Virus genome (UHGV): UHGV-0307316
Reading direction: 5' to 3' (one strand)
Length of the DNA stretch: 64,000 bases
DNA from: a virus
How positions within the stretch are numbered: the first letter of the stretch is position 1; every line of letters starts with the position of its first letter. Positions 38,778 through 61,908 of the stretch are shown one piece after another. Under the pieces are notes generated by a model. That model was not told where the DNA came from. It was given only the letters and a program-made list of their open reading frames with translations, and did not search any database. The translations under genes were made by a program, and so were the position numbers.

Positions 38778-39033
38778 TAGTTATAAAAGAGAGGGGTTCA
38801 CACCATTCTTTGAAGAAAAAAGTTTAAATAAATTTCAGGAAGAGTGTTTGACAAAGATTGATAGGTTCTATAGAATGCTCCACATGAAATGCGATGGAGA
38901 AGTTGAAATAGAACAACAGTTCCATCAAAGTATGATTACAGTCATCATTACACTGCCTCAGCATAATATTGGTTGGCTGTTTATAATGAAAGAAAATGTG
39001 TTTGAATATCAAGTATATCGGAGAATATCATGA
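38740..39033 (+). CDS. Hypothetical protein
   Basis: 97 aa ORF overlapping helicase 3' end; coding status uncertain. Confidence 0.25.
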   Translation: MRMQMTARSKLSDSYKREGFTPFFEEKSLNKFQEECLTKIDRFYRMLHMKCDGEVEIEQQFHQSMITVIITLPQHNIGWLFIMKENVFEYQVYRRIS

Positions 39034-39186: not shown

Positions 39187-39215
39187 TTGACAATAGAGTA
39201 TCAACAAATTAGAAT
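39187..39215 (+). promoter_or_regulatory. Sigma70-like promoter upstream of SSB gene
   Basis: TTGACA (39187-39192), 17-nt spacer, TAGAAT (39210-39215). Confidence 0.5.
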
Positions 39216-52425: not shown

Positions 52426-52696
52426 AGAGAAGTGGGAAATTTTACCATTAGTCAGTGAAGGTGGTAATGGTTGTGAAATGTACATGATACGTGGTCATGT
52501 TCCAGAACCAATTGCACTTGAGATGGTAAACAACTTTACAGATGGTTCTTACAAAGACTTAGGAGAGCCAACTATAAAGCATCAATGGGTAAAACCTGTA
52601 CCAGACAGCACAGGTAACTGTAGTGTACTTTACCACGTTGTAGACCCTGTAAAATGCAAATCTGCAATGGCAGTAACAAACGTAACCTTTGATTGA
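52418..52696 (+). CDS. Hypothetical protein
   Basis: 92 aa ORF. Confidence 0.3.
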   Translation: MAKEKWEILPLVSEGGNGCEMYMIRGHVPEPIALEMVNNFTDGSYKDLGEPTIKHQWVKPVPDSTGNCSVLYHVVDPVKCKSAMAVTNVTFD

Positions 52697-53589
52697 GAGA
52701 CAAAACTATGAAAACATCTATCCGTGTTACAGTTCATTCACCAACTAAAGGGACTCACGAAGAAGAGTTTAACATCGTCCAATTTCCTTCTGGTGAGATT
52801 GGTGGACATTTTTCACCAGAGTTTGTTGATTTTACTGCTTATGCTGCATCATCCATCAACAACGTGATTATGATTATAAAGGGTTATGACAAAGACACAT
52901 TATTTGCTGTGGCACTTGCTAAAGAGGTAATTGATGATTTAGTACCTCATAAGTTTGCTATGAAGACTGCTATCTTTTACTATTTGCCAAATGCACGTTA
53001 CGACCGTCACATGTTTAAAGGTGATGCAGCAGCTTTGAAAGTGTTTGCACAACAGGTTAATGCAATGGGTTTTGATGCAGTCTGTGCAGTTGACCCTCAT
53101 AGTTACGTTCCAGATAACCTTTTCAATTGCTTCCAGAGTATTCCTCAAAAGGAGATTGCAGTCCATTACGCAAATGACCCTCTGATTGATTACTTAGTAG
53201 CCCCAGATGCAGGTGCTTCTAAGAAGATTGCAGAGACTGCTAAAGAGGTGGATAAACCATATATCACAATGTCTAAGGTGCGAAATCTTAAGACTGGAGA
53301 AATCACTGGTATGCGAATCCTTGACGATGTTGATTTGACCGATAAAACCGTCATGATTCTTGATGATATCTGTGATGGTGGTCGAACCTTCGTAGAGGCA
53401 GCTAAACACCTACGTGAAGCAGGTGCAAAACGTGTAGAGCTTTATGTAACACATGGTATCTTCTCTAAAGATGTTGAAAACCTTCTTGACAATGGTATCG
53501 ACCATATTTACACTACAAACTCTTTAGGCGAAGCTAAAGACCGTGGCTTAACACATTACAGTCAAGTTACTGTAGCAAACCTTGATTGA
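52693..53589 (+). CDS. Ribose-phosphate pyrophosphokinase family protein (Prs-like; candidate ADP-ribose pyrophosphokinase Adps)
   Basis: PRPP-synthetase-type C-terminal half: VAPDAGA, phosphoribosyl-binding loop VMILDDICDGGRT, YVTHGIFS. Confidence 0.75.
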   Translation: MRDKTMKTSIRVTVHSPTKGTHEEEFNIVQFPSGEIGGHFSPEFVDFTAYAASSINNVIMIIKGYDKDTLFAVALAKEVIDDLVPHKFAMKTAIFYYLPNARYDRHMFKGDAAALKVFAQQVNAMGFDAVCAVDPHSYVPDNLFNCFQSIPQKEIAVHYANDPLIDYLVAPDAGASKKIAETAKEVDKPYITMSKVRNLKTGEITGMRILDDVDLTDKTVMILDDICDGGRTFVEAAKHLREAGAKRVELYVTHGIFSKDVENLLDNGIDHIYTTNSLGEAKDRGLTHYSQVTVANLD

Positions 53590-53636
53590 AACTTTATATG
53601 GGCTTGAAAGACCCATTTTGAGAGAGAGATTAAAAG

Positions 53637-55418
53637 ATGACTAAATCACTTTATGCAGTACCAGCAGGTTTAAACGCGGATGCTTACAAGTCTGGCCATG
53701 TTTACCAGTACCCTAGTGCAACAGAATACTTGATGTTCAACCTGACACCACGTAGTGACAAATGGTTTAACAGCCCTTTAGCAATTGACGGTGTAGTGGC
53801 TTTTGGTATTCAACGTTTTGTTAAAGATTACTTGATAGACCACTGGAACGCCACTTTCTTTGAACGTGATAAAAAAGAAGCAATTGACGAAATCTTAGAA
53901 GTCATGAATGGTGTTCTGGGTAAAGATGCTATCGGTCGAGAGCATTGGGAAGCACTTCACGACTTAGGTTATCTACCAGTTGAAGTATACGCGGTAGAAG
54001 AAGGTACAGTTGTCCCTATGCGTGTCCCAATGATTGTCTTCCAGAACACTGTTTCAGGTTTCCATTGGGTAGCAGGTTATCTGGAAGATGCTTTCTCTGC
54101 TGAGATTTGGAAGGCTTGCACTATTGCAACTATTGCATTGCATTACAAACGCATCTGTAAGAAGTGGGCTGACCTTACTTGTGACAACGACTTACATCTG
54201 CCCTATCAGTGCCATGACTTTGCTATGCGTGGTATGTCCGGCTTTACTGATGACGCATTTAACGCTGTAGGTCACTTAACCAGCTTTAAAGGAACCGATA
54301 GCTTCCCTGCTGTATACACGGCTAAACGCATCTATGGACAGTCTTACCCAATCTCTGATATTGGTAGTTCTGTACCAGCCACTGAACACTCTGTAATGTG
54401 TGCAAACATTGCTTGGGAAGGTGGTAATGAATTGATTGAAGAAGAAAGACGCTTTAAAGGTGAGTTACAAACCTTCCGTCGTTTCTTAACAGAAACTTAC
54501 CCAACTGGTATTGCAAGTATTGTTTCAGATACTTATAACTTCTGGAGAACTGTGTCAGAAATCTTACCAGCACTCCGTAAAGAAATTATGGAACGTGATG
54601 GTAAACTGGTAATTCGCCCTGACTCTGGAGACCCTGTACATATTGTCACAGGTTATAAAGCAATCCACTTAGAGTGTGCTAAAAAGGCTTATTACGAGCA
54701 CCTAAGCAAGCTTGAAGCCAGCGACACAATGTTGAATGCTGTTCTGAACATGAAGCTTGAAAACATCAACTATGGTATTGCTGGATGGCTACTGTCAGAA
54801 GGCTACGAAATGGTTGTTGACAGAGAAGACTTTGAAGTAGCCGATACAGTGTTGCTGAAAGATGCTTACATCAACGGCTCTGCAAACGTTGTAACACGTC
54901 CTGTAGCGGAGATTGATGGAGCTATTAAGACACTGTACAACATCTTTGGGGGAACTATTAACTCTAAAGGGTTTAAGGTACTGGATGAGCACATTGGCCT
55001 TATCTATGGCGACTCTATCACGCTGGAACGTGCAAACGAAATCCTGAAGCGTCTGTATGAAATGGGTTTTGCAAGCTCTAACGTAGTGTTTGGTGTAGGC
55101 TCTTACACTTACCAGTACATGACTCGTGACACCTTTGCATTTGCTGTTAAAGCAACTCTTGCAAGCATTGGTGGTAAAGAGATTATGCTTGCAAAAGACC
55201 CTAAAACAGATAGTGGTGTTAAGAAGTCTGCTTTTGGTGGTGTAGTACCTATGTGGAATGGTGATAAGTTGAAAGCTGTAGATGGCTATGGATTCCAGAG
55301 CTTTGCAGATGTACTTGAACATCCAGCTTGTGCTCTACGTTTAGTCTTTAGTGACTCTGAGCAGTATGGTTACACATCTCTTGGTGATATTCGAAATAAT
55401 ATTGACAAGCAGCTTTAA
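53637..55418 (+). CDS. Nicotinamide phosphoribosyltransferase family protein (NadV-like; candidate nicotinamide ADPR transferase Namat)
   Basis: 593 aa ORF with NAMPT-like N-terminus (NADAYKSGHVYQYP); immediately downstream of Prs-like gene. Confidence 0.7.
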   Translation: MTKSLYAVPAGLNADAYKSGHVYQYPSATEYLMFNLTPRSDKWFNSPLAIDGVVAFGIQRFVKDYLIDHWNATFFERDKKEAIDEILEVMNGVLGKDAIGREHWEALHDLGYLPVEVYAVEEGTVVPMRVPMIVFQNTVSGFHWVAGYLEDAFSAEIWKACTIATIALHYKRICKKWADLTCDNDLHLPYQCHDFAMRGMSGFTDDAFNAVGHLTSFKGTDSFPAVYTAKRIYGQSYPISDIGSSVPATEHSVMCANIAWEGGNELIEEERRFKGELQTFRRFLTETYPTGIASIVSDTYNFWRTVSEILPALRKEIMERDGKLVIRPDSGDPVHIVTGYKAIHLECAKKAYYEHLSKLEASDTMLNAVLNMKLENINYGIAGWLLSEGYEMVVDREDFEVADTVLLKDAYINGSANVVTRPVAEIDGAIKTLYNIFGGTINSKGFKVLDEHIGLIYGDSITLERANEILKRLYEMGFASSNVVFGVGSYTYQYMTRDTFAFAVKATLASIGGKEIMLAKDPKTDSGVKKSAFGGVVPMWNGDKLKAVDGYGFQSFADVLEHPACALRLVFSDSEQYGYTSLGDIRNNIDKQL

Positions 55419-55429
55419 AAGTATATGAT
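55402..55429 (+). promoter_or_regulatory. Candidate promoter inside 3' end of NadV-like gene
   Basis: TTGACAAG (55402-55409), ~16-nt spacer, TATGAT. Confidence 0.35.
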
Positions 55430-55431
55430 AA

Positions 55432-55455
55432 AAGGCTCCCGTAGGAGCCTTTTTA
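55432..55455 (+). terminator. Rho-independent terminator after NadV-like gene
   Basis: GGCTCC-CGTA-GGAGCC followed by TTTTT. Confidence 0.6.
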
Positions 55456-55471
55456 ATTTCTGGAGAAGACT

Positions 55472-55807
55472 ATGAAAATCAAAGAAATGAACATCAACAT
55501 TGTCTTAGAAGAACGTTGGGAGAACATCAAGAAGCATGAAGATGGTCATAAGTTCCTTAACAAAATTTTAGTAGCAGCTAAAGAAGAACTGGCTGGCAAG
55601 GTTGCAGCAGCAATCACAATAAAGGTTTGTGTAAAAGGTCTTCCACAACATCACCAATTTGCACTTGACGAGTTTAAAGAAAGCTTCTACAATCCAAACA
55701 AACAGATGCTTGAAAGTAACTTTGCAGTATCTACAAGTATCGTTCATGACAGAAGCTTTATCCTTTACAAGAATATGAGAGGTGAGTCATGCAAGCATAT
55801 TGGATAG
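55472..55807 (+). CDS. Hypothetical protein
   Basis: 111 aa ORF. Confidence 0.3.
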   Translation: MKIKEMNINIVLEERWENIKKHEDGHKFLNKILVAAKEELAGKVAAAITIKVCVKGLPQHHQFALDEFKESFYNPNKQMLESNFAVSTSIVHDRSFILYKNMRGESCKHIG

Positions 55808-55965
55808 AAATTTTACTGTCACTTGGTAGTGTAGCAGTATTTGTTTACCTCCTTTGTAAGTACTTTGCAGAGCACAAAAAATGTGACTACTGTAATGGAG
55901 AGGGGTACATAAGGGCAGGATGTTGTCCTATGTGTGGTGGTTCTGGTAAAATGTTTAATAAGTAA
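55789..55965 (+). CDS. Unlisted small ORF (58 aa): membrane-anchored protein with two DnaJ-type CxxCxGxG zinc-finger motifs
   Basis: ATG at 55789 preceded by GAGGTGAG; translation MQAYWIEILLSLGSVAVFVYLLCKYFAEHKKCDYCNGEGYIRAGCCPMCGGSGKMFNK; below the 60-aa ORF-track cutoff. Confidence 0.45.
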   Translation: MQAYWIEILLSLGSVAVFVYLLCKYFAEHKKCDYCNGEGYIRAGCCPMCGGSGKMFNK

Positions 55966-55993
55966 TTTAACAGTAAACTGAGAGGAAAGTATT

Positions 55994-58360
55994 ATGCGCA
56001 TGGTAAATGACCACGCAGAAGTGATTAAGAGTTCAACTTCTTTAGAGACGTCTCAAGCACAGATTACAATGACACCTGAGATGTTCAGCCTTTTGAGTTC
56101 TGGTGTATATACCTTTAAAGAAAGGGCAGTGATTCGTGAACTGTCATGTAACGCAGTAGATGCTCAGAAAGAAGCTGGAAAAGAGAACATCCCATTCCAT
56201 GTGCATTTACCTACTCGTTTTGAGCCTTACTTCGAAGTTCGTGATTTTGGAACTGGATTGACTCATGATAAAGTTATGAGTTTGTACCTAAACTATGGAG
56301 CTTCTACGAAGAATGACTCTAATGACTACATTGGTGCAATGGGTATCGGCTCAAAGTCACCATTTGCAATTGCTCAGTCATTCACAGTATCTAGTTATGT
56401 TGACGGTGTTGTTAATAAGTACTCTGTTTATCTTGAGAATGGTATCCCTCAAGTAACTAAGCTGACAACTAACCAAACAAAAGAACCTAATGGTTTAGCT
56501 GTACGTGTGGCAGTTGCTGACCACCGTATCTCAAAGTTCTTTGAAGAAGCTGGGAATGTGTACTCATACTTCACTGTAAAACCAGAAAGTAATATTGAGT
56601 ACGACGATGTATTAGCAGATATGAACGTAATTGCCCGTGAAGAAGGTGTTTATGATGCCATGATTCATAAGCACAGCTGGCGTTCTAGTGATAACAGGAC
56701 AGAGTTTAATGTGGTGATGGGTAACATTGCCTATCCAGTGAACATGGAAGCGTTACTTGGTGATGATTTCTTCAAAGTCTTGCCAGAGTTTTTCCGTAGG
56801 AGCGTAGACCTTGTAAACATCTACATGCCTATTGGTTCAGTTGCTATTGCAGCTTCTCGTGAAGCATTGCAGATGAATGACACGACAAAAAATGTTATCA
56901 TTGAGGCTACTAAAAAGATAACTGAAGCAATTACAAAGGATGTTATCAAGAAAGTTAATAGCCAACCTACACTCATGGATGCTGCACAGGCTTATGCTGA
57001 GTTACGTTTGAACTCACGAGAGATGTTTAATGCTGTGTGTCCAAAGCTAGAGTGGGGTGGCGTTAAGCTTGATTCTCTGGAAGAAGAATTGCTAAACATT
57101 CGTCGTGGAATTATCTACGCAGAAGACGGCTCAGTCATTTATGAACGTGATGGTAAAGGCAATATTAAGGTTGATAGGAACGGGAACAATATACCTAAAG
57201 TAGATTATCTTTATGACCCAGTTGCTTATGTCAAGTTCAACTCTTTAGAGAGTAAGATTCGTGCAACATCGCTTTCCTACACTCAAGAGGCAAGTATGTT
57301 CAATATCTTTGGTGCAATGCGTAAAAGCCAAATTGAACAGTTTTTGTTCGTGATTAATGACCGTCGCAATAAAAATGGTACTGAGAAGACTGTAGGCCGC
57401 AATCAGATTCTGCGTGGTGCATGTCGAGACTACGCCAGTGAGTCAAGTCTGTTTCACAGATACAATGGTATTGTGTTTGTATTCTCGACTGAAAAAGAGT
57501 TAGACGACCTAATCAATCTACACAAACTTGATAAAAGCTTGTTAAAGATTGTGAAAATGTCTGATAAGGAGCACCATTACCAGCGCAAAGAAGCTGTAAG
57601 GGGTGTTGTAAAACTCTGGAAAGCTGTTCCAGCAGAAGGTGTAGCTTCCTATAAAGAGGTTTCAGAGGACTTAGACACAATTGAAGAACCTCAGCTTTAC
57701 ATTAAGGCAATTGGTGACACAGTTGATGGTGAATGTTTTTGCTCATCCCCAGAAGATGTAGCTAAGTCAGTTGCTAATGTTATTGGAAAGACAGTCTATG
57801 TTTTCCGAAAAGCAAATTGGAAAAAGATACCAGAAGACTGGATTGAAGTAGATGAGAAGCTCTTGAACGACAGCTTAACTGATGTTCATTGGATTAATCA
57901 TAACAGGTATACGACACGCATCTACATGAATGGTGTTCTTGACCTTACAAGTAGCTGGATTATTGCCAGAAACTTTACGTTCAATAACAGGAAGATTTCT
58001 CGTGGCTATTGCTATTCACGGGATACAAACAAAACTATCTTCCTAGAAGGTAATGAAGAGGCTGTAGAGGCAATGTTTGGTAAAATCCAGTATGTTGCTG
58101 CACCATTTGCATACACTTACACTATTAGTGTGTTGAAAACTTTGAAAGATTGTCTTGACAACGATACAAAGCTTTACAAGAAAATTAAGAAAGCTGGTGA
58201 CCGTATGGTTATTAAGGTGACAAACTACCTTTCAAAAAGAAAACAAGAAAACTTCTTGCTTTCTCATTTAGATTGGAATAAAGTGTCACCCATCGAAGTG
58301 AGTAAGTTCTTAGGTTTTGATGTGAAGTGTGTTCCAGAAGGAACTACAGTTTACGATTAA
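55994..58360 (+). CDS. rIIA-like protein with N-terminal GHKL-type ATPase domain
   Basis: Bergerat-fold motifs: N-box ELSCNAVDA (ExxxNAxDA), G1 box DFGTGLT, G2 box GAMGIGSKS; ~790 aa as for rIIA-family proteins. Confidence 0.5.
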   Translation: MRMVNDHAEVIKSSTSLETSQAQITMTPEMFSLLSSGVYTFKERAVIRELSCNAVDAQKEAGKENIPFHVHLPTRFEPYFEVRDFGTGLTHDKVMSLYLNYGASTKNDSNDYIGAMGIGSKSPFAIAQSFTVSSYVDGVVNKYSVYLENGIPQVTKLTTNQTKEPNGLAVRVAVADHRISKFFEEAGNVYSYFTVKPESNIEYDDVLADMNVIAREEGVYDAMIHKHSWRSSDNRTEFNVVMGNIAYPVNMEALLGDDFFKVLPEFFRRSVDLVNIYMPIGSVAIAASREALQMNDTTKNVIIEATKKITEAITKDVIKKVNSQPTLMDAAQAYAELRLNSREMFNAVCPKLEWGGVKLDSLEEELLNIRRGIIYAEDGSVIYERDGKGNIKVDRNGNNIPKVDYLYDPVAYVKFNSLESKIRATSLSYTQEASMFNIFGAMRKSQIEQFLFVINDRRNKNGTEKTVGRNQILRGACRDYASESSLFHRYNGIVFVFSTEKELDDLINLHKLDKSLLKIVKMSDKEHHYQRKEAVRGVVKLWKAVPAEGVASYKEVSEDLDTIEEPQLYIKAIGDTVDGECFCSSPEDVAKSVANVIGKTVYVFRKANWKKIPEDWIEVDEKLLNDSLTDVHWINHNRYTTRIYMNGVLDLTSSWIIARNFTFNNRKISRGYCYSRDTNKTIFLEGNEEAVEAMFGKIQYVAAPFAYTYTISVLKTLKDCLDNDTKLYKKIKKAGDRMVIKVTNYLSKRKQENFLLSHLDWNKVSPIEVSKFLGFDVKCVPEGTTVYD

Positions 58361-58365
58361 AGTGT

Positions 58366-58395
58366 TTGACAAGGGGCTTCAAAGCCCCTTAGAAT
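58366..58395 (+). promoter_or_regulatory. Sigma70-like promoter with terminator-like hairpin in the spacer
   Basis: TTGACAAG (58366-58373), 18-nt spacer containing palindrome AGGGGCTTCAAAGCCCCT, TAGAAT (58390-58395). Confidence 0.45.
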
Positions 58396-58439
58396 ATCCT
58401 CACAAAATGATTTATTAACTAACAAGAGAGAGTAATAAG

Positions 58440-59549
58440 ATGACTACTAAAACTAAAGCACAGATTGACGCAGAAATTTACAAACTGGTTAAAGAAGGTA
58501 AGCTGACTAAAACAGCTATTGCACAGAAATTTAATACTTCAACCCGTTCAGTCGGTCGTGCTGTAGAGCGTCATGAAGCAACATTAAAAGGGAATAAGAA
58601 GGTAACTTCTACACCAGCTACGAAGACTTTGAAGCAAGTTGCTAAGACCTTTAAAAAGAAAGCTGACAAACCAGTTGAAAAGGTTGTTAAAGATTCTGTA
58701 CAGAAAGCTCCAGTAAATAAACTGCACGAAGCTATGCAGAAAGATGACAAGATTGAGTACATGATTACTGGCGACTCTGTAATTATGACTTACGGTTCAG
58801 AATCTGAAATTGTTGAGTCTACTCATCCGAACTATCAAGAGATTGTAGTTCATGTTGTGAAAGGTGAGTTCAAGAAAGCCTTTGAACTGATGAACATTCG
58901 TAAGTCTATCGAAAACTTCACGCAGGGAGCTATCACAATCAAAGGTGATAAGCTATTCTACGGTGCTGTTGAGATGCGTTCTACTCTGGTTGACCGTATC
59001 CTTCACATGATGAAGACTGGTGATAAAGGTTTTGAACGACTTGTAATGTTCTTCGAAAAACTGATGGAAAACCCATCTAAAGATTCTGTAGAACAACTTT
59101 GGGGATTCATATCTCACCTTGATGTTGAAATTGATGAAGAAGGCTACATCATTGGTTGGAAGAAAGTCTCTACTCGTGAAGGCAAGCTGGTTGACTCCCG
59201 CACCTGCAAAGTACCTAATGATTTGGGTAACATTGTAGAAATGCCACGTTGGATGGTTGATAATAACCGTAACGTGACTTGCTCTCAAGGTCTTCACGTT
59301 GGTGCTTGGGATTATGTTCGTTACTTCTCAGGTGATACAATTCTGAAGGTTCGTGTCCATCCACGAGACGTTGTATCCGTACCAACTGATTACAACGATA
59401 TGAAGATGCGCTCGTCTCGTTATGAAGTTGCAGCAATCGTTGATAATCAACGTAAAGTACTGAAAGCATGGGATGGCAAGACTGAAGCTTTGCATGTCAT
59501 CGTTGGCACTGCTGGTGAACTTATCTCTGAGCGTAAACGTGAAATCTAA
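58440..59549 (+). CDS. Putative rIIB-like protein (by position after rIIA-like gene)
   Basis: 369 aa ORF immediately after rIIA-like gene; Lys-rich N-terminus; no diagnostic motif. Confidence 0.3.
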   Translation: MTTKTKAQIDAEIYKLVKEGKLTKTAIAQKFNTSTRSVGRAVERHEATLKGNKKVTSTPATKTLKQVAKTFKKKADKPVEKVVKDSVQKAPVNKLHEAMQKDDKIEYMITGDSVIMTYGSESEIVESTHPNYQEIVVHVVKGEFKKAFELMNIRKSIENFTQGAITIKGDKLFYGAVEMRSTLVDRILHMMKTGDKGFERLVMFFEKLMENPSKDSVEQLWGFISHLDVEIDEEGYIIGWKKVSTREGKLVDSRTCKVPNDLGNIVEMPRWMVDNNRNVTCSQGLHVGAWDYVRYFSGDTILKVRVHPRDVVSVPTDYNDMKMRSSRYEVAAIVDNQRKVLKAWDGKTEALHVIVGTAGELISERKREI

Positions 59550-59566
59550 TAAGTAATTTCTTAAAA

Positions 59567-59588
59567 GGCTGCTTCGGCGGCCTTTTTT
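59567..59588 (+). terminator. Rho-independent terminator (UUCG tetraloop family)
   Basis: GGCTGC-TTCG-GCGGCC followed by TTTTTT. Confidence 0.6.
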
Positions 59589-59649
59589 ATTTGTATTTTG
59601 TGCAGAGTGCTGTATAATTGTTGTCACGATAAACTAAACAGGAGAACCA

Positions 59650-60198
59650 ATGAAGAAATTGATTCTAGGTTTGTGCTTAATGTTTACAGCACACTTATCT
59701 TATGCAGTTGACTGCCCAGAGCTATCAATTAGCCAAAAAGTAAACATGTTAAAAGCTTACCAGTATGGTGAGAACAACATGGGTAAAGGTTGGGGTATCA
59801 CTCTAGCTGCTATAGCCTTACAAGAGTCAGAGTTAGGTCTGAAGGTAGAGAATAAAAAGACACATGATTATGGTATTTTCCAGAATCACTTGAAGACTGT
59901 TGTAAAGCGTAACAAAATTAGTCCTAATATGGCTAAAAAGAAACTCTTAAAAGACTTTAACTATGCTGCGAAGGAAACTCACAAAGAGCTTGAGTTTTGG
60001 ACAAAGGTGCATGGTCAGCCAAAGTCAAAGAAGACTTTACAAAAAGTTTTAGCATCATATAATGCTGGGTATTCGTACAAAATCCCTAAAGCTAAGAAAT
60101 ATTCTCAAGATGTCTATAACAACATGAAAGTCATTGCTCAATGTGAATTTGCAACAAACATTTCTAAGGTAAACCATGAAAAAATTAAAAAAGTCTGA
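59650..60198 (+). CDS. Lytic transglycosylase (SLT domain) with signal peptide; candidate endolysin
   Basis: Signal peptide MKKLILGLCLMFTAHLSYA; SLT motifs QESEL (ES), DYGIFQ (GLMQ-like), SYNAGYS (AYNxG). Confidence 0.7.
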   Translation: MKKLILGLCLMFTAHLSYAVDCPELSISQKVNMLKAYQYGENNMGKGWGITLAAIALQESELGLKVENKKTHDYGIFQNHLKTVVKRNKISPNMAKKKLLKDFNYAAKETHKELEFWTKVHGQPKSKKTLQKVLASYNAGYSYKIPKAKKYSQDVYNNMKVIAQCEFATNISKVNHEKIKKV

Positions 60199-61397: not shown

Positions 61398-61745
61398 ATG
61401 ACATTTAAAGAGTTCTGTCAAGCTACTTTCATAATTGTTTTCTTAGTTGGGGCAGGTGTCTGGGGAGGATACTCTTACAGAGACTATCAAGTTGCTGAAG
61501 TTGAGCTAAATAATGAGAAACTAATAAGTGTTGCCAAAGATGCTTATCAGGAAGGTTTAGCCACACTGAGCACCAATTACAAAAATGATTTGAAAGATGT
61601 GCTTGCTAAGAATAAGCATACAAAAGAGGTACTAACGTATGAAAAGACTAAGCCAGAGTTTTATAATGTTTGTGTTACTGATAATTATGTCAGGGTGTTC
61701 AACGAACAAAGTGAGCAGTACATTCAAAAACTCCCAAGTAAGTGA
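61398..61745 (+). CDS. i-spanin (Rz-like, putative)
   Basis: N-terminal TM helix (FIIVFLVGAGVWGGY) then coiled-coil periplasmic domain; lipoprotein ORF begins inside its 3' end. Confidence 0.5.
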   Translation: MTFKEFCQATFIIVFLVGAGVWGGYSYRDYQVAEVELNNEKLISVAKDAYQEGLATLSTNYKNDLKDVLAKNKHTKEVLTYEKTKPEFYNVCVTDNYVRVFNEQSEQYIQKLPSK

Positions 61746-61908
61746 GAGTGATAAGTACACTCAAGAAGAATCACGGTATATCATCAAAGGCAACACAGGC
61801 AGCGATGTAGCAGCAGCCCTTGAGTTCTATCGTGACGGCTTTTACCAGTGCACAATCAAAGCTAACAACCTTATTGACATGATTTTATTAGGGAATAAGC
61901 AGCAATGA
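61639..61908 (+). CDS. o-spanin (Rz1-like lipoprotein, putative), overlapping the i-spanin gene out of frame
   Basis: Signal peptide with lipobox (LLIIMSGC); starts within 61398-61745 in a different frame. Confidence 0.5.
   Translation: MKRLSQSFIMFVLLIIMSGCSTNKVSSTFKNSQVSESDKYTQEESRYIIKGNTGSDVAAALEFYRDGFYQCTIKANNLIDMILLGNKQQ

Follow-up and report, generated by a model that had tools for sequence, protein, structure and literature searches.

A probable rIIA-rIIB counter-defence module in the genome of a Felix O1-like phage

RESULTS

Identification of the rIIA-rIIB locus

The two genes at positions 55994-59549 of the analyzed DNA (a 64,000-nucleotide stretch of a virus genome, hereafter the window) are, with a probability of roughly 0.88, the known rIIA-rIIB module of a Felix O1-like phage, a counter-defence system made up of two proteins. 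The pair is already annotated in relatives, where its function has been partly tested, and the locus itself is not new. The window is from the genome of a Felixounavirus (Felix O1-like, Ounavirinae); its region 55400-59700 matches 83 phage records at 95–98% DNA identity and 215 at 90% or above, and among the matches listed, annotated records call the genes rIIA and rIIB.

All coordinates refer to the window, and all features lie on the plus strand. The rIIA gene (55994..58360, 788 aa) is located directly upstream of rIIB (58440..59549, 369 aa) on the same strand; both start with ATG and are preceded by a purine-rich Shine-Dalgarno sequence. Both reading frames were recovered with the lengths and boundaries given in the original prediction, and they are considered genuine because a 788-aa frame in DNA of 39% GC is far beyond chance and the family matches are very strong. 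Gene order and strand are identical to those of T4. The rII locus is fully syntenic with that of Bas63 (Escherichia phage JohannRWettstein, MZ501086), a member of the same genus, and with that of SUSP1 (Suspvirus, NC_028808), a member of the same subfamily, in which the shared order runs from prs through the spanins. SUSP1 gp081 and gp082 are 63% and 80% identical to rIIA and rIIB, respectively. The loci differ in that SUSP1 has additional HNH endonuclease genes near rII and a 345-nt ORF absent from the window (g81) separates nadV from the homologue of ORF111 in Bas63.

ORF111 (55472..55807, 111 aa, phrog_4262) is the conserved upstream neighbor of rIIA and is 59% identical to SUSP1 gp079. It is followed by ORF58 (55789..55965, 58 aa), which is 47% identical to SUSP1 gp080, ends 28 nt before the rIIA start, and combines an N-terminal hydrophobic helix (Kyte-Doolittle 19-residue maximum of 2.11) with a zinc-ribbon-like CxxC...CxxC tail. 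A possible correspondence of these two ORFs to T4 rIIA.1 was rejected, since BLAST gave no match between them. The spanin genes, placed by synteny with Bas63 and SUSP1, are located about 2 kb downstream, at 61398-61908. The PhageMaP preprint gives more than 80% homology of Bas63 gp84/85 to T4 RIIA/B. This figure was rejected, as direct BLAST with the proteins of the window gave 32% and 43% identity to T4, and these proteins are 97% and 83% identical to their Bas63 counterparts.

rIIA contains an Hsp90/MORC-like GHKL module

The original prediction described an rIIA-like GHKL ATPase with a possible rIIB partner and proposed an HMM search against both families; both were matched (phrog_612 and phrog_609). 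The 788-aa protein matched phrog_612 (RIIA) with an E value of 1.4e-188, aa 1-770 aligning with profile positions 1-716 of 725. Bas63 gp84 and SUSP1 gp081 were also matched, and the length fits the family span of about 700–800 aa. BLASTP against T4 rIIA (NP_049616) gave 32% identity over 306 aa (aa 24-317 of the window protein, E 4e-37), an alignment that covers the shared N-terminal GHKL module and runs beyond the nucleotide-binding core. The full-length profile match and the T4 match place the protein in the rIIA family, not merely among generic GHKL proteins.

The conserved part of rIIA (aa ~25-330, 56066..56983) consists of the GHKL (Bergerat-fold) ATPase and an adjoining second domain. 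The three complete Bergerat-fold motifs that had been read from the translation were all recovered and hardly vary across 64 aligned homologues, whose identity goes down to about 22%. These are motif I, ELSCNAVDA (aa 49-57, 56138..56164), with E49, N53, and D56 invariant; motif II, DFGTGLT (aa 84-90, 56243..56263), with D84 and G86 invariant and G88 nearly so; and motif III, GAMGIGSKS (aa 114-122, 56333..56359), with G114, G117, G119, and K121 invariant. The C-terminal region of ~460 aa (56984..58357) is confidently folded in the model and poorly conserved: past aa 320, identity to homologues drops to 0.1–0.3, and beyond aa 317, BLASTP gave no alignment to T4 rIIA. The rIIA architecture has been described as including a C-terminal domain that varies greatly (PMC7824862).

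The predicted model of rIIA shows the GHKL ATPase with its adjoining domain arranged as in Hsp90, MORC, and TopoVI-B. The family profile matched Hsp90-family N-domains (best E 1.6e-5), and the single rIIA sequence gave no match in the PDB. The top fold and sequence matches are Hsp90-family chaperones; the closest folds also include the DNA-acting GHKL clamps MORC2/3, SMCHD1, TopoVI-B, and MutL. PF13589 is carried by rIIA relatives; a Pfam scan of the whole protein gave no match, and an NCBIfam scan gave only weak GHKL matches (HSP90, sacsin) far under their cut-offs. The GHKL module resembles Hsp90/MORC-type ATPases and not histidine kinases, which is a small addition to the existing annotation. 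PADLOC matched rIIA to the defence protein TmtA (E 1e-8), but only over aa 20-134; this was read as the shared GHKL domain, and the assignment was rejected. No transmembrane helix was predicted in rIIA or rIIB (Kyte-Doolittle 19-residue maxima of 1.29 and 0.69), so the classical label of "membrane integrity protector" is not explained by the sequence.

rIIB has an N-terminal HTH and a conserved core

The 369-aa ORF, which had been suggested as rIIB from its position, is a true rIIB: it matched phrog_609 (RIIB) with an E value of 7e-89 and T4 rIIB (NP_049889) with 43% identity over 215 aa (BLASTP, E 1e-59). Pfam scans of the whole protein gave only sub-threshold helix-turn-helix (HTH) matches and did not yield PF26926, the rIIB family model; cluster representatives 96% identical to the window protein carry a precomputed match to PF26926.1.

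The protein begins with a three-helix HTH domain (aa 6-50, 58455..58589), which is confident in the model and similar to sigma region 4 and DeoR DNA-binding domains. A lysine-rich linker (aa 54-89, 58599..58706) with pLDDT below 50 is predicted to be disordered, and K and R make up 29% of aa 51-95. The conserved core (aa 127-339, 58818..59456) is common to T4 rIIB, which also has an N-terminal HTH. Compared with T4 rIIB, the window protein is longer by 57 aa and has a more extended basic linker and, at its C terminus, a beta extension of ~30 aa. The core had no PDB relative by sequence or by fold: the rIIB profile gave nothing significant against the PDB, the single sequence gave no match, and fold searches of the model matched the HTH alone, with no Foldseek match at E ≤ 0.001. 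The C-terminal part of rIIB is thus without a solved structural relative, a second small addition.

Within the family, conservation and occupancy are lowest in the HTH region, where occupancy is 0.5–0.6 over aa 1-80. The C-terminal half exists within the genus as several alleles of 80–90% identity where rIIA is nearly uniform, and the divergence between the rIIB proteins of Bas63 and the window is concentrated in aa 241-300 and 331-369.

A predicted promoter with a hairpin in its spacer separates rIIA and rIIB

The gap between rIIA and rIIB is about 11 nt in T4, whereas in the window it is 79 nt and contains a sigma-70-like promoter, TTGACA-18-TAGAAT (58366..58395). TTGACA (58366-58371) and TAGAAT (58390-58395) enclose the 18-nt spacer AGGGGCTTCAAAGCCCCT, which is filled by a GC-rich hairpin, AGGGGCT / TCAA / AGCCCCT (58372..58389). 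The hairpin-bearing promoter-like site described in the original prediction was found at these coordinates, with a consensus score of 11/12; folded alone, the spacer forms a stem of 7 bp closed by a 4-nt loop (-11.6 kcal/mol). Only 1 of the 35 TTGAC-type candidates in the window has a strongly hairpinned spacer, the one before rIIB. The pattern TTGACA-N16-18-TANAAT was seen three times in the window where 0.36 would be expected, an 8-fold over-representation that none of 100 shuffles reached, and all three occurrences use TAGAAT.

Across Felixounavirus, Suspvirus, and Mooglevirus, neither hexamer changes, while the hairpin loop varies. The intergenic element of Bas63 differs from that of the window at 2 of 79 bases, and SUSP1 shares the TTGACA-hairpin-TAGAAT arrangement with a spacer of 17 nt instead of 18. 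The promoter-in-hairpin element is therefore kept across three genera, which is the third small addition. The more distant Ounavirinae Zyzzx and Pistou have a GC hairpin of different sequence in the same gap, and the two hexamers are absent from that of Pistou. No covariation was found in the hairpin, since its stem is invariant in the three genera apart from one non-compensated change in SP3; support for the hairpin as such therefore comes only from the different-sequence hairpins at the same place in the two further genera. It is not a canonical terminator, as it has no T-run, and it would be part only of read-through transcripts from rIIA.

End-point RT-PCR of Felix O1 showed a maximum at 10 min for ORF2 (rIIB) and at 25 min for ORF1 (rIIA) (PMC3185647 Table 3). 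Together with the conservation of the predicted promoter and hairpin, this timing makes separate regulation of the two genes plausible. A possible but doubtful alternative is that TTGACA...TAGAAT is not a working promoter and that only the RNA hairpin matters, as a 3'-end stabilizer or processing site of a co-transcribed rIIA-rIIB message. The retention of different-sequence hairpins in Zyzzx and Pistou, the latter without the hexamers, fits this alternative, a stable hairpin in the spacer could hinder promoter use, and the Felix O1 paper lists no promoter here (PMC3185647). However, an RNA element does not account well for hexamers that are invariant in three genera around a varying loop, for the 8-fold excess of a pattern that always has TAGAAT, or for maxima of rIIB and rIIA at different times in Felix O1; moreover, a stem-loop between -35 and -10 is one of the commonest arrangements in the experimentally active PeSL cassettes of RB49 and phi1 (PMC2839356). 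Separate regulation from an intergenic promoter thus remains our preferred reading.

Flanking signals and similarity to PeSL cassettes

A second sigma-70-like promoter, TTGACA-16-TATGAT (55402..55429, 11/12), precedes the small-ORF/rII block and overlaps the end of nadV; it is conserved in Bas63, FSL SP-107, and UAB_Phi87. Directly after its -10 hexamer is a terminator-like hairpin (55430..55453) with a 10-bp stem, a 4-nt loop, and a T-run, so that the two form a composite promoter/terminator, located where the window differs from Bas63 and FSL SP-107 by the indel of a 345-nt ORF. An intrinsic terminator follows rIIB (59563..59586); its sequence, ggctgcttcggcggcctttttt, is listed as terminator t2 of Felix O1 (PMC3185647 Table 2).

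The intergenic element at 58366-58395, with its hairpin at 58372-58389, is similar to the PeSL (promoter-early stem-loop) cassettes known from T4-type phages (PMC2839356, PMC4122927). In such cassettes, a sigma-70 promoter close to the consensus lies in an intergenic gap and has a GC-rich stem-loop within it or adjoining it (PMC2839356); this arrangement is seen both here and at 55402-55453. The element at 55402-55453, with a stem-loop just downstream of the -10 hexamer, corresponds to another described PeSL subclass and lies at a point of ORF insertion/deletion. PeSL-like elements were previously described only in T4-type phages. The cassettes of RB49 and phi1, which belong to a different phage family, number in the dozens, compared with two elements in 64 kb here; these two are among about eight strong GC hairpins in the 64 kb. 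The RB49/phi1 cassettes are experimentally active (PMC2839356); for the elements predicted here, the evidence of activity is indirect, namely the different maxima of ORF1 and ORF2 in Felix O1. As a tentative and rather unlikely proposal, taken as a whole, the rII block may be built from PeSL-like elements that uncouple rIIB from rIIA and mark recombination points, and the C-terminal half of rIIB may be a recombining, diversifying surface shaped by RIIB-sensing defences, as in the case of the Lysobacter gasdermin system and T6 RIIB.

DISCUSSION

The original prediction attributed to the rII proteins a role against abortive-infection and exclusion systems, and this role has been published for close relatives of the phage. 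Deletion of Bas63 g84 or g85 lowers plating efficiency 10^4–10^5-fold on hosts with QatABCD, complementation restores it, and gp84 and gp85 are co-essential counters of this system (PMC11482910). Knockdown of RIIA/RIIB in SUSP1 lowers plating in the presence of lambda RexAB and has no effect without Rex (PMC11879866), and transposon insertions in T4 rIIA and rIIB are depleted only with RexAB (bioRxiv 10.1101/2025.11.20.689424). By analogy with these orthologues, rIIA and rIIB of the window would probably be dispensable on a defence-free host and required on hosts with RexAB-type abortive infection. The window rIIA is 97% identical to Bas63 gp84 and rIIB is 82.6% identical to gp85; because rIIB is 17% unlike the tested allele, mostly in aa 241-369, specificity could differ.

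According to the proposed mechanism, rIIA would be a soluble or peripheral protein whose N-terminal third contains the GHKL ATPase and second domain, of the kind that dimerizes on ATP binding in Hsp90, MORC, MutL, and TopoVI-B, followed by the lineage-variable C-terminal region. rIIB would contribute a small N-terminal HTH, a basic disordered linker, and the C-terminal core. The ORF111-to-rIIB block would be read from the 55402 promoter and end at the 59563 terminator, with the composite hairpin/promoter damping or stabilizing the rIIA message and giving rIIB its own start. The two proteins would be needed together, though not on defenceless hosts, and would allow infection to be completed despite abortive-infection systems, such as lambda RexAB and QatABCD, that otherwise collapse the cell before progeny are formed. 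From the fold and the genetics, we infer an ATP-driven action of rIIA with ATP hydrolysis, dimerization, and contact with rIIB; the point at which the pair blocks defence may be the membrane or the trigger.

A less probable alternative concerns the mechanism only, as the genes are still rIIA and rIIB: the module might act on DNA or transcription and not on the membrane, with rIIB as an HTH transcription factor and rIIA as a MORC-/MutL-like DNA clamp, remodeling or masking those intermediates of phage replication or recombination by which RexA or QatA is triggered, or repressing phage genes. The confident HTH of rIIB, with its likeness to sigma region 4 and DeoR, points in this direction, but conservation and occupancy in the family are lowest there, and T4 rIIB can do without its N-terminal segment for growth on K(lambda), the basis of the classical frameshift work. 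Likewise, MORC2/3, SMCHD1, TopoVI-B, and MutL are among the closest folds of rIIA, but its top fold and sequence matches are Hsp90-family chaperones and not DNA enzymes. Comparative work terms rIIB a "specific TF" (PMC7824862), and QatABCD includes a nuclease and an ATPase (PMC11482910), in keeping with an action on DNA; against it, an r1589-like rIIA-rIIB fusion was described as "apparently hypomorphic" and is rexAB-susceptible (PMC8594841).

The product name "RIIA/RIIB lysis inhibitor" in PHROGs and most GenBank records, and the spanin genes about 2 kb downstream of rIIB, would suit a pair of literal lysis inhibitors that delay holin-mediated lysis on superinfection and do not counter host or prophage defences. 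Lysis inhibition in T4, however, depends on rI and holin T and is not known to depend on rII. As the T4 RefSeq note also ties rapid lysis to "various lysogenic strains" and specific prophage effects, and loss of the genes is harmless on defence-free hosts with a strong effect only in the presence of RexAB or QatABCD, we consider this reading highly improbable.

The assignment of the locus to the rIIA-rIIB counter-defence module is therefore retained. Little is added here beyond correct annotation, and the three additions noted above are small and checkable, not discoveries. Few phage genes have been known for longer than the rII genes, and experiments on Bas63, of the same genus, and on SUSP1, of a sister genus, have recently confirmed their counter-defence function. 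On the way in which a GHKL ATPase and its HTH-bearing partner neutralize RexAB and QatABCD, a biochemical question general to the rII family, the window offers no better handle than Bas63 or T4.

Identification of the rIIA-rIIB gene pair

The gene pair consists of rIIA (55994-58360, + strand, 788 aa) and rIIB (58440-59549, + strand, 369 aa), each preceded by a purine-rich ribosome-binding site. The original prediction, made from the sequence alone, had described an rIIA-like GHKL ATPase followed by a possible rIIB partner. The ORF listing placed both ORFs on the same strand with exactly these coordinates, the three ATPase motifs it had quoted were found at aa 49-57, 84-90 and 114-122 of rIIA, and the sequence claimed as a hairpin-spacer promoter was present at 58366-58395. 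As the ORFs, motifs and intergenic element were all present as described, the observation was right in all details. The HMM comparison that it proposed also agreed: rIIA gave a full-length match to the PHROG profile 'RIIA' (E 1.4e-188), and rIIB matched 'RIIB' (E 7e-89).

In T4, rIIA and rIIB likewise adjoin on one strand with rIIA first. The identity to T4 rIIA was 32% in the N-terminal third only (aa 24-317, E 4e-37), where the alignment stops, and that to T4 rIIB was 43% in the C-terminal two-thirds (aa 127-339, E 1e-59). A preprint claims >80% homology between gp84/85 of the Felixounavirus Bas63 and T4 RIIA/B (PMC11482910), but BLAST of the near-identical window proteins gave these values of 32% and 43%. 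No model matching rIIA or rIIB was found in the Pfam copy searched; in a large protein database, PF26926 is carried by close rIIB homologues and PF13589 (HATPase_c_3) by many rIIA homologues. The 1055-position profile phrog_609, named 'RIIB', was matched by both the rIIA N-terminus (positions 31-299) and rIIB (755-1048), so it seems to contain natural rIIA-rIIB fusions or merged gene calls.

Source and genomic neighbourhood

A megablast search with 55400-59700 against GenBank phage records found 277 records, with identities of 95-99% in 83 and 90-95% in 132. Nearly all belong to the genus Felixounavirus and are Escherichia, Salmonella, Shigella or Citrobacter phages; the top match was Felixounavirus LF110P1 (97.9%). 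The gene names rIIA and rIIB are used in annotated records among the matches listed, and the locus has been known since 2010 or earlier. In GU169904.1 ('Staphylococcus phage SA1', 147 kb), positions 122395-123095 are rIIA/rIIB DNA 91.6% identical to the Felix O1-like locus, which suggests that the assembly is mixed or mislabelled.

The gene order is prs, nadV, two small ORFs, rIIA, rIIB, a 182-aa secreted protein, a polynucleotide-kinase-like gene and spanins, and the order around rIIA-rIIB is common to UAB_Phi87, Bas63 and SUSP1 (Suspvirus, the sister genus). Just 5' of the rII block lie a ribose-phosphate pyrophosphokinase-like gene (52693/52708-53589, about 293-298 aa), 79% identical to Bas63 g79, and NadV (nicotinamide phosphoribosyltransferase, 53637-55418), 98% identical to Bas63 g80. 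Since g79 and g80 reportedly counter Sir2-HerA, a defence that depletes NAD (PMC11482910), two modules for counter-defence, 52693-55418 and the rII pair, would adjoin here.

The second small ORF, ORF58 (55789-55965, 58 aa), ends 28 nt 5' of rIIA and has a transmembrane-like helix at its N-terminus and a CxxC...CxxC zinc-ribbon tail. It is kept in Bas63 and SUSP1 (47% identity in the latter) and showed no similarity to T4 rIIA.1; it may be a partner at the membrane for the soluble rII proteins. The 182-aa protein 3' of rIIB (59650-60198) has a signal-peptide-like N-terminus and 75% identity in SUSP1. It belongs to phrog_600 (function unknown); one record names it 'putative lysin', and it gave a weak SLT lytic-transglycosylase match that was below threshold (E 0.0012).

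Organization of rIIA and rIIB

Searched against the PDB, the sequence profile of the rIIA family matched N-domains of the Hsp90 family (TRAP1, E 1.6e-5). The Bergerat residues E49, N53, D56, D84, G86, G114, G117, G119 and K121 are invariant in homologues down to about 22% identity, and G281, R289 and E290 form a second invariant patch; conservation is high at aa 1-200 and 281-320 and low in the remainder. No transmembrane helix was predicted in rIIA. The rIIB model (mean pLDDT 86, 70 sequences) comprises a three-helix bundle (aa 6-50), a lysine-rich disordered linker (aa 54-89) and an alpha/beta region that starts at about aa 94 and is well ordered up to the C-terminus.

Within the genus, where rIIA is uniform, rIIB alleles are mosaic, especially at aa 241-369. 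rIIA is about 97% identical to those of UAB_Phi87 and Bas63 alike, whereas rIIB is 97.6% identical to that of UAB_Phi87 and 82.6% to that of Bas63, ranging in the latter from 100% at aa 151-210 to 43% at aa 331-369. In the protein database, rIIB clusters occur at 96, 93, 89, 87, 84, 82 and 80% identity, and rIIA clusters drop directly from 98% to 68%.

Probable function of the rII proteins in counter-defence

Owing to experiments in close relatives, the best-supported reading is that rIIA-rIIB would serve as a module of two proteins that counters abortive-infection systems. Deletion of Bas63 gp84 (rIIA) or gp85 (rIIB), which share 97% and 82.6% identity with their counterparts in the window, lowered plating efficiency 10^4-10^5-fold on QatABCD hosts; complementation restored plating for the most part, and the two genes behaved as co-essential (PMC11482910). 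When RIIA or RIIB of SUSP1 (63% and 80% identical to the window proteins) was knocked down with dCas13d, plating was unaffected on Rex-free hosts and less efficient on hosts with lambda RexAB, and plating on RexAB was likewise lowered in T4, MM02, EdH4 and N4 (PMC11879866). The plating experiment suggested in the original prediction is already published for the same genus and for its sister genus, and it came out as predicted. T6 RIIB by itself sets off a Lysobacter gasdermin defence system, and T6 escape mutants from this system have inactivated rIIB (PMC10312443).

The name 'lysis inhibitor' used in databases is a historical one; a note in the T4 record ascribes the rapid-lysis phenotype to prophage effects. 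The poorly conserved helix-turn-helix (HTH) region of rIIB weakens the alternative that the rII proteins act on DNA or transcription, not at the membrane, and so does the N-terminal segment of T4 rIIB, which is classically dispensable. For the counter-defence module, the fold suggests that rIIA may be a clamp or chaperone that dimerises in an ATP-dependent way, with the conserved rIIB core as its probable functional partner; the site of action may be the membrane or the trigger of the defence.

Predicted promoter and hairpin elements

In the 79-nt gap between rIIA and rIIB, TTGACA and TAGAAT are separated by an 18-nt spacer (58366-58395, + strand), and this spacer, AGGGGCTTCAAAGCCCCT, forms a hairpin with a perfectly paired 7-bp stem and a loop of 4 nt. 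In a gap alignment of eleven Ounavirinae, both hexamers and the GGGGCT/AGCCCC stem were kept in Felixounavirus, Suspvirus and Mooglevirus, with a variable loop (TTCAAA, TTTGAA, TGAAAA); the spacer measures 18 nt in Felixounavirus, as against 17 nt in Suspvirus and Mooglevirus. In Zyzzx and Pistou, which are more distant, the gap contains GC hairpins that differ from this one. As no T-run lies 3' of the window's hairpin, it does not qualify as a canonical terminator. The transcript of the predicted promoter would start about 6-8 nt past 58395 and exclude the hairpin, and a read-through transcript from rIIA would include it.

This layout is that of the PeSL (promoter-early stem-loop) cassettes of the T4-type phages RB49 and phi1, whose stem-loop, 'generally GGGG...CCCC', is commonest between the -35 box and the -10 box or in overlap with the latter, and for which activity was demonstrated both as promoter and as terminator/attenuator (PMC2839356). 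In end-point RT-PCR of Felix O1, ORF2 (rIIB) was at its maximum at 10 min and ORF1 (rIIA) at 25 min (PMC3185647), a timing that fits the suggestion of separate regulation made in the original prediction. Across the window, the pattern TTGACA-N16-18-TANAAT is over-represented (3 matches; 0.36 expected), with TAGAAT as the -10 hexamer in all three. The two further sites are exact TTGACA-N17-TAGAAT on the + strand at 38848-38876 and 39187-39215, the latter intergenic and 5' of a 285-aa ORF. As this unusual hexamer is common to the three sites, it suggests a phage-preferred promoter variant.

A second composite element at 55402-55453 (+ strand), with a predicted promoter (TTGACA-16-TATGAT) and directly 3' of it a terminator hairpin with a 10-bp stem, marks the end of nadV and the start of the block of ORF111 (55472-55807), ORF58 and rIIA. 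Exactly at this place, Bas63 and FSL SP-107 have an extra 345-nt ORF (bas63_0081 / SP107_00260), with the promoter/hairpin element 5' of it, that the window is without; this indel is reminiscent of small-ORF insertion/deletion at PeSL. The terminator 3' of rIIB is a canonical one and does not differ from t2 of Felix O1.

In summary, the identification is correct. The gene pair is well known and its phage genus well sampled, and the window sequence does not depart from its many annotated relatives. The points that remain are small: the rIIB core, which is without a solved fold, the allelic mosaicism of rIIB, and the presence of PeSL-like elements outside T4-type phages.
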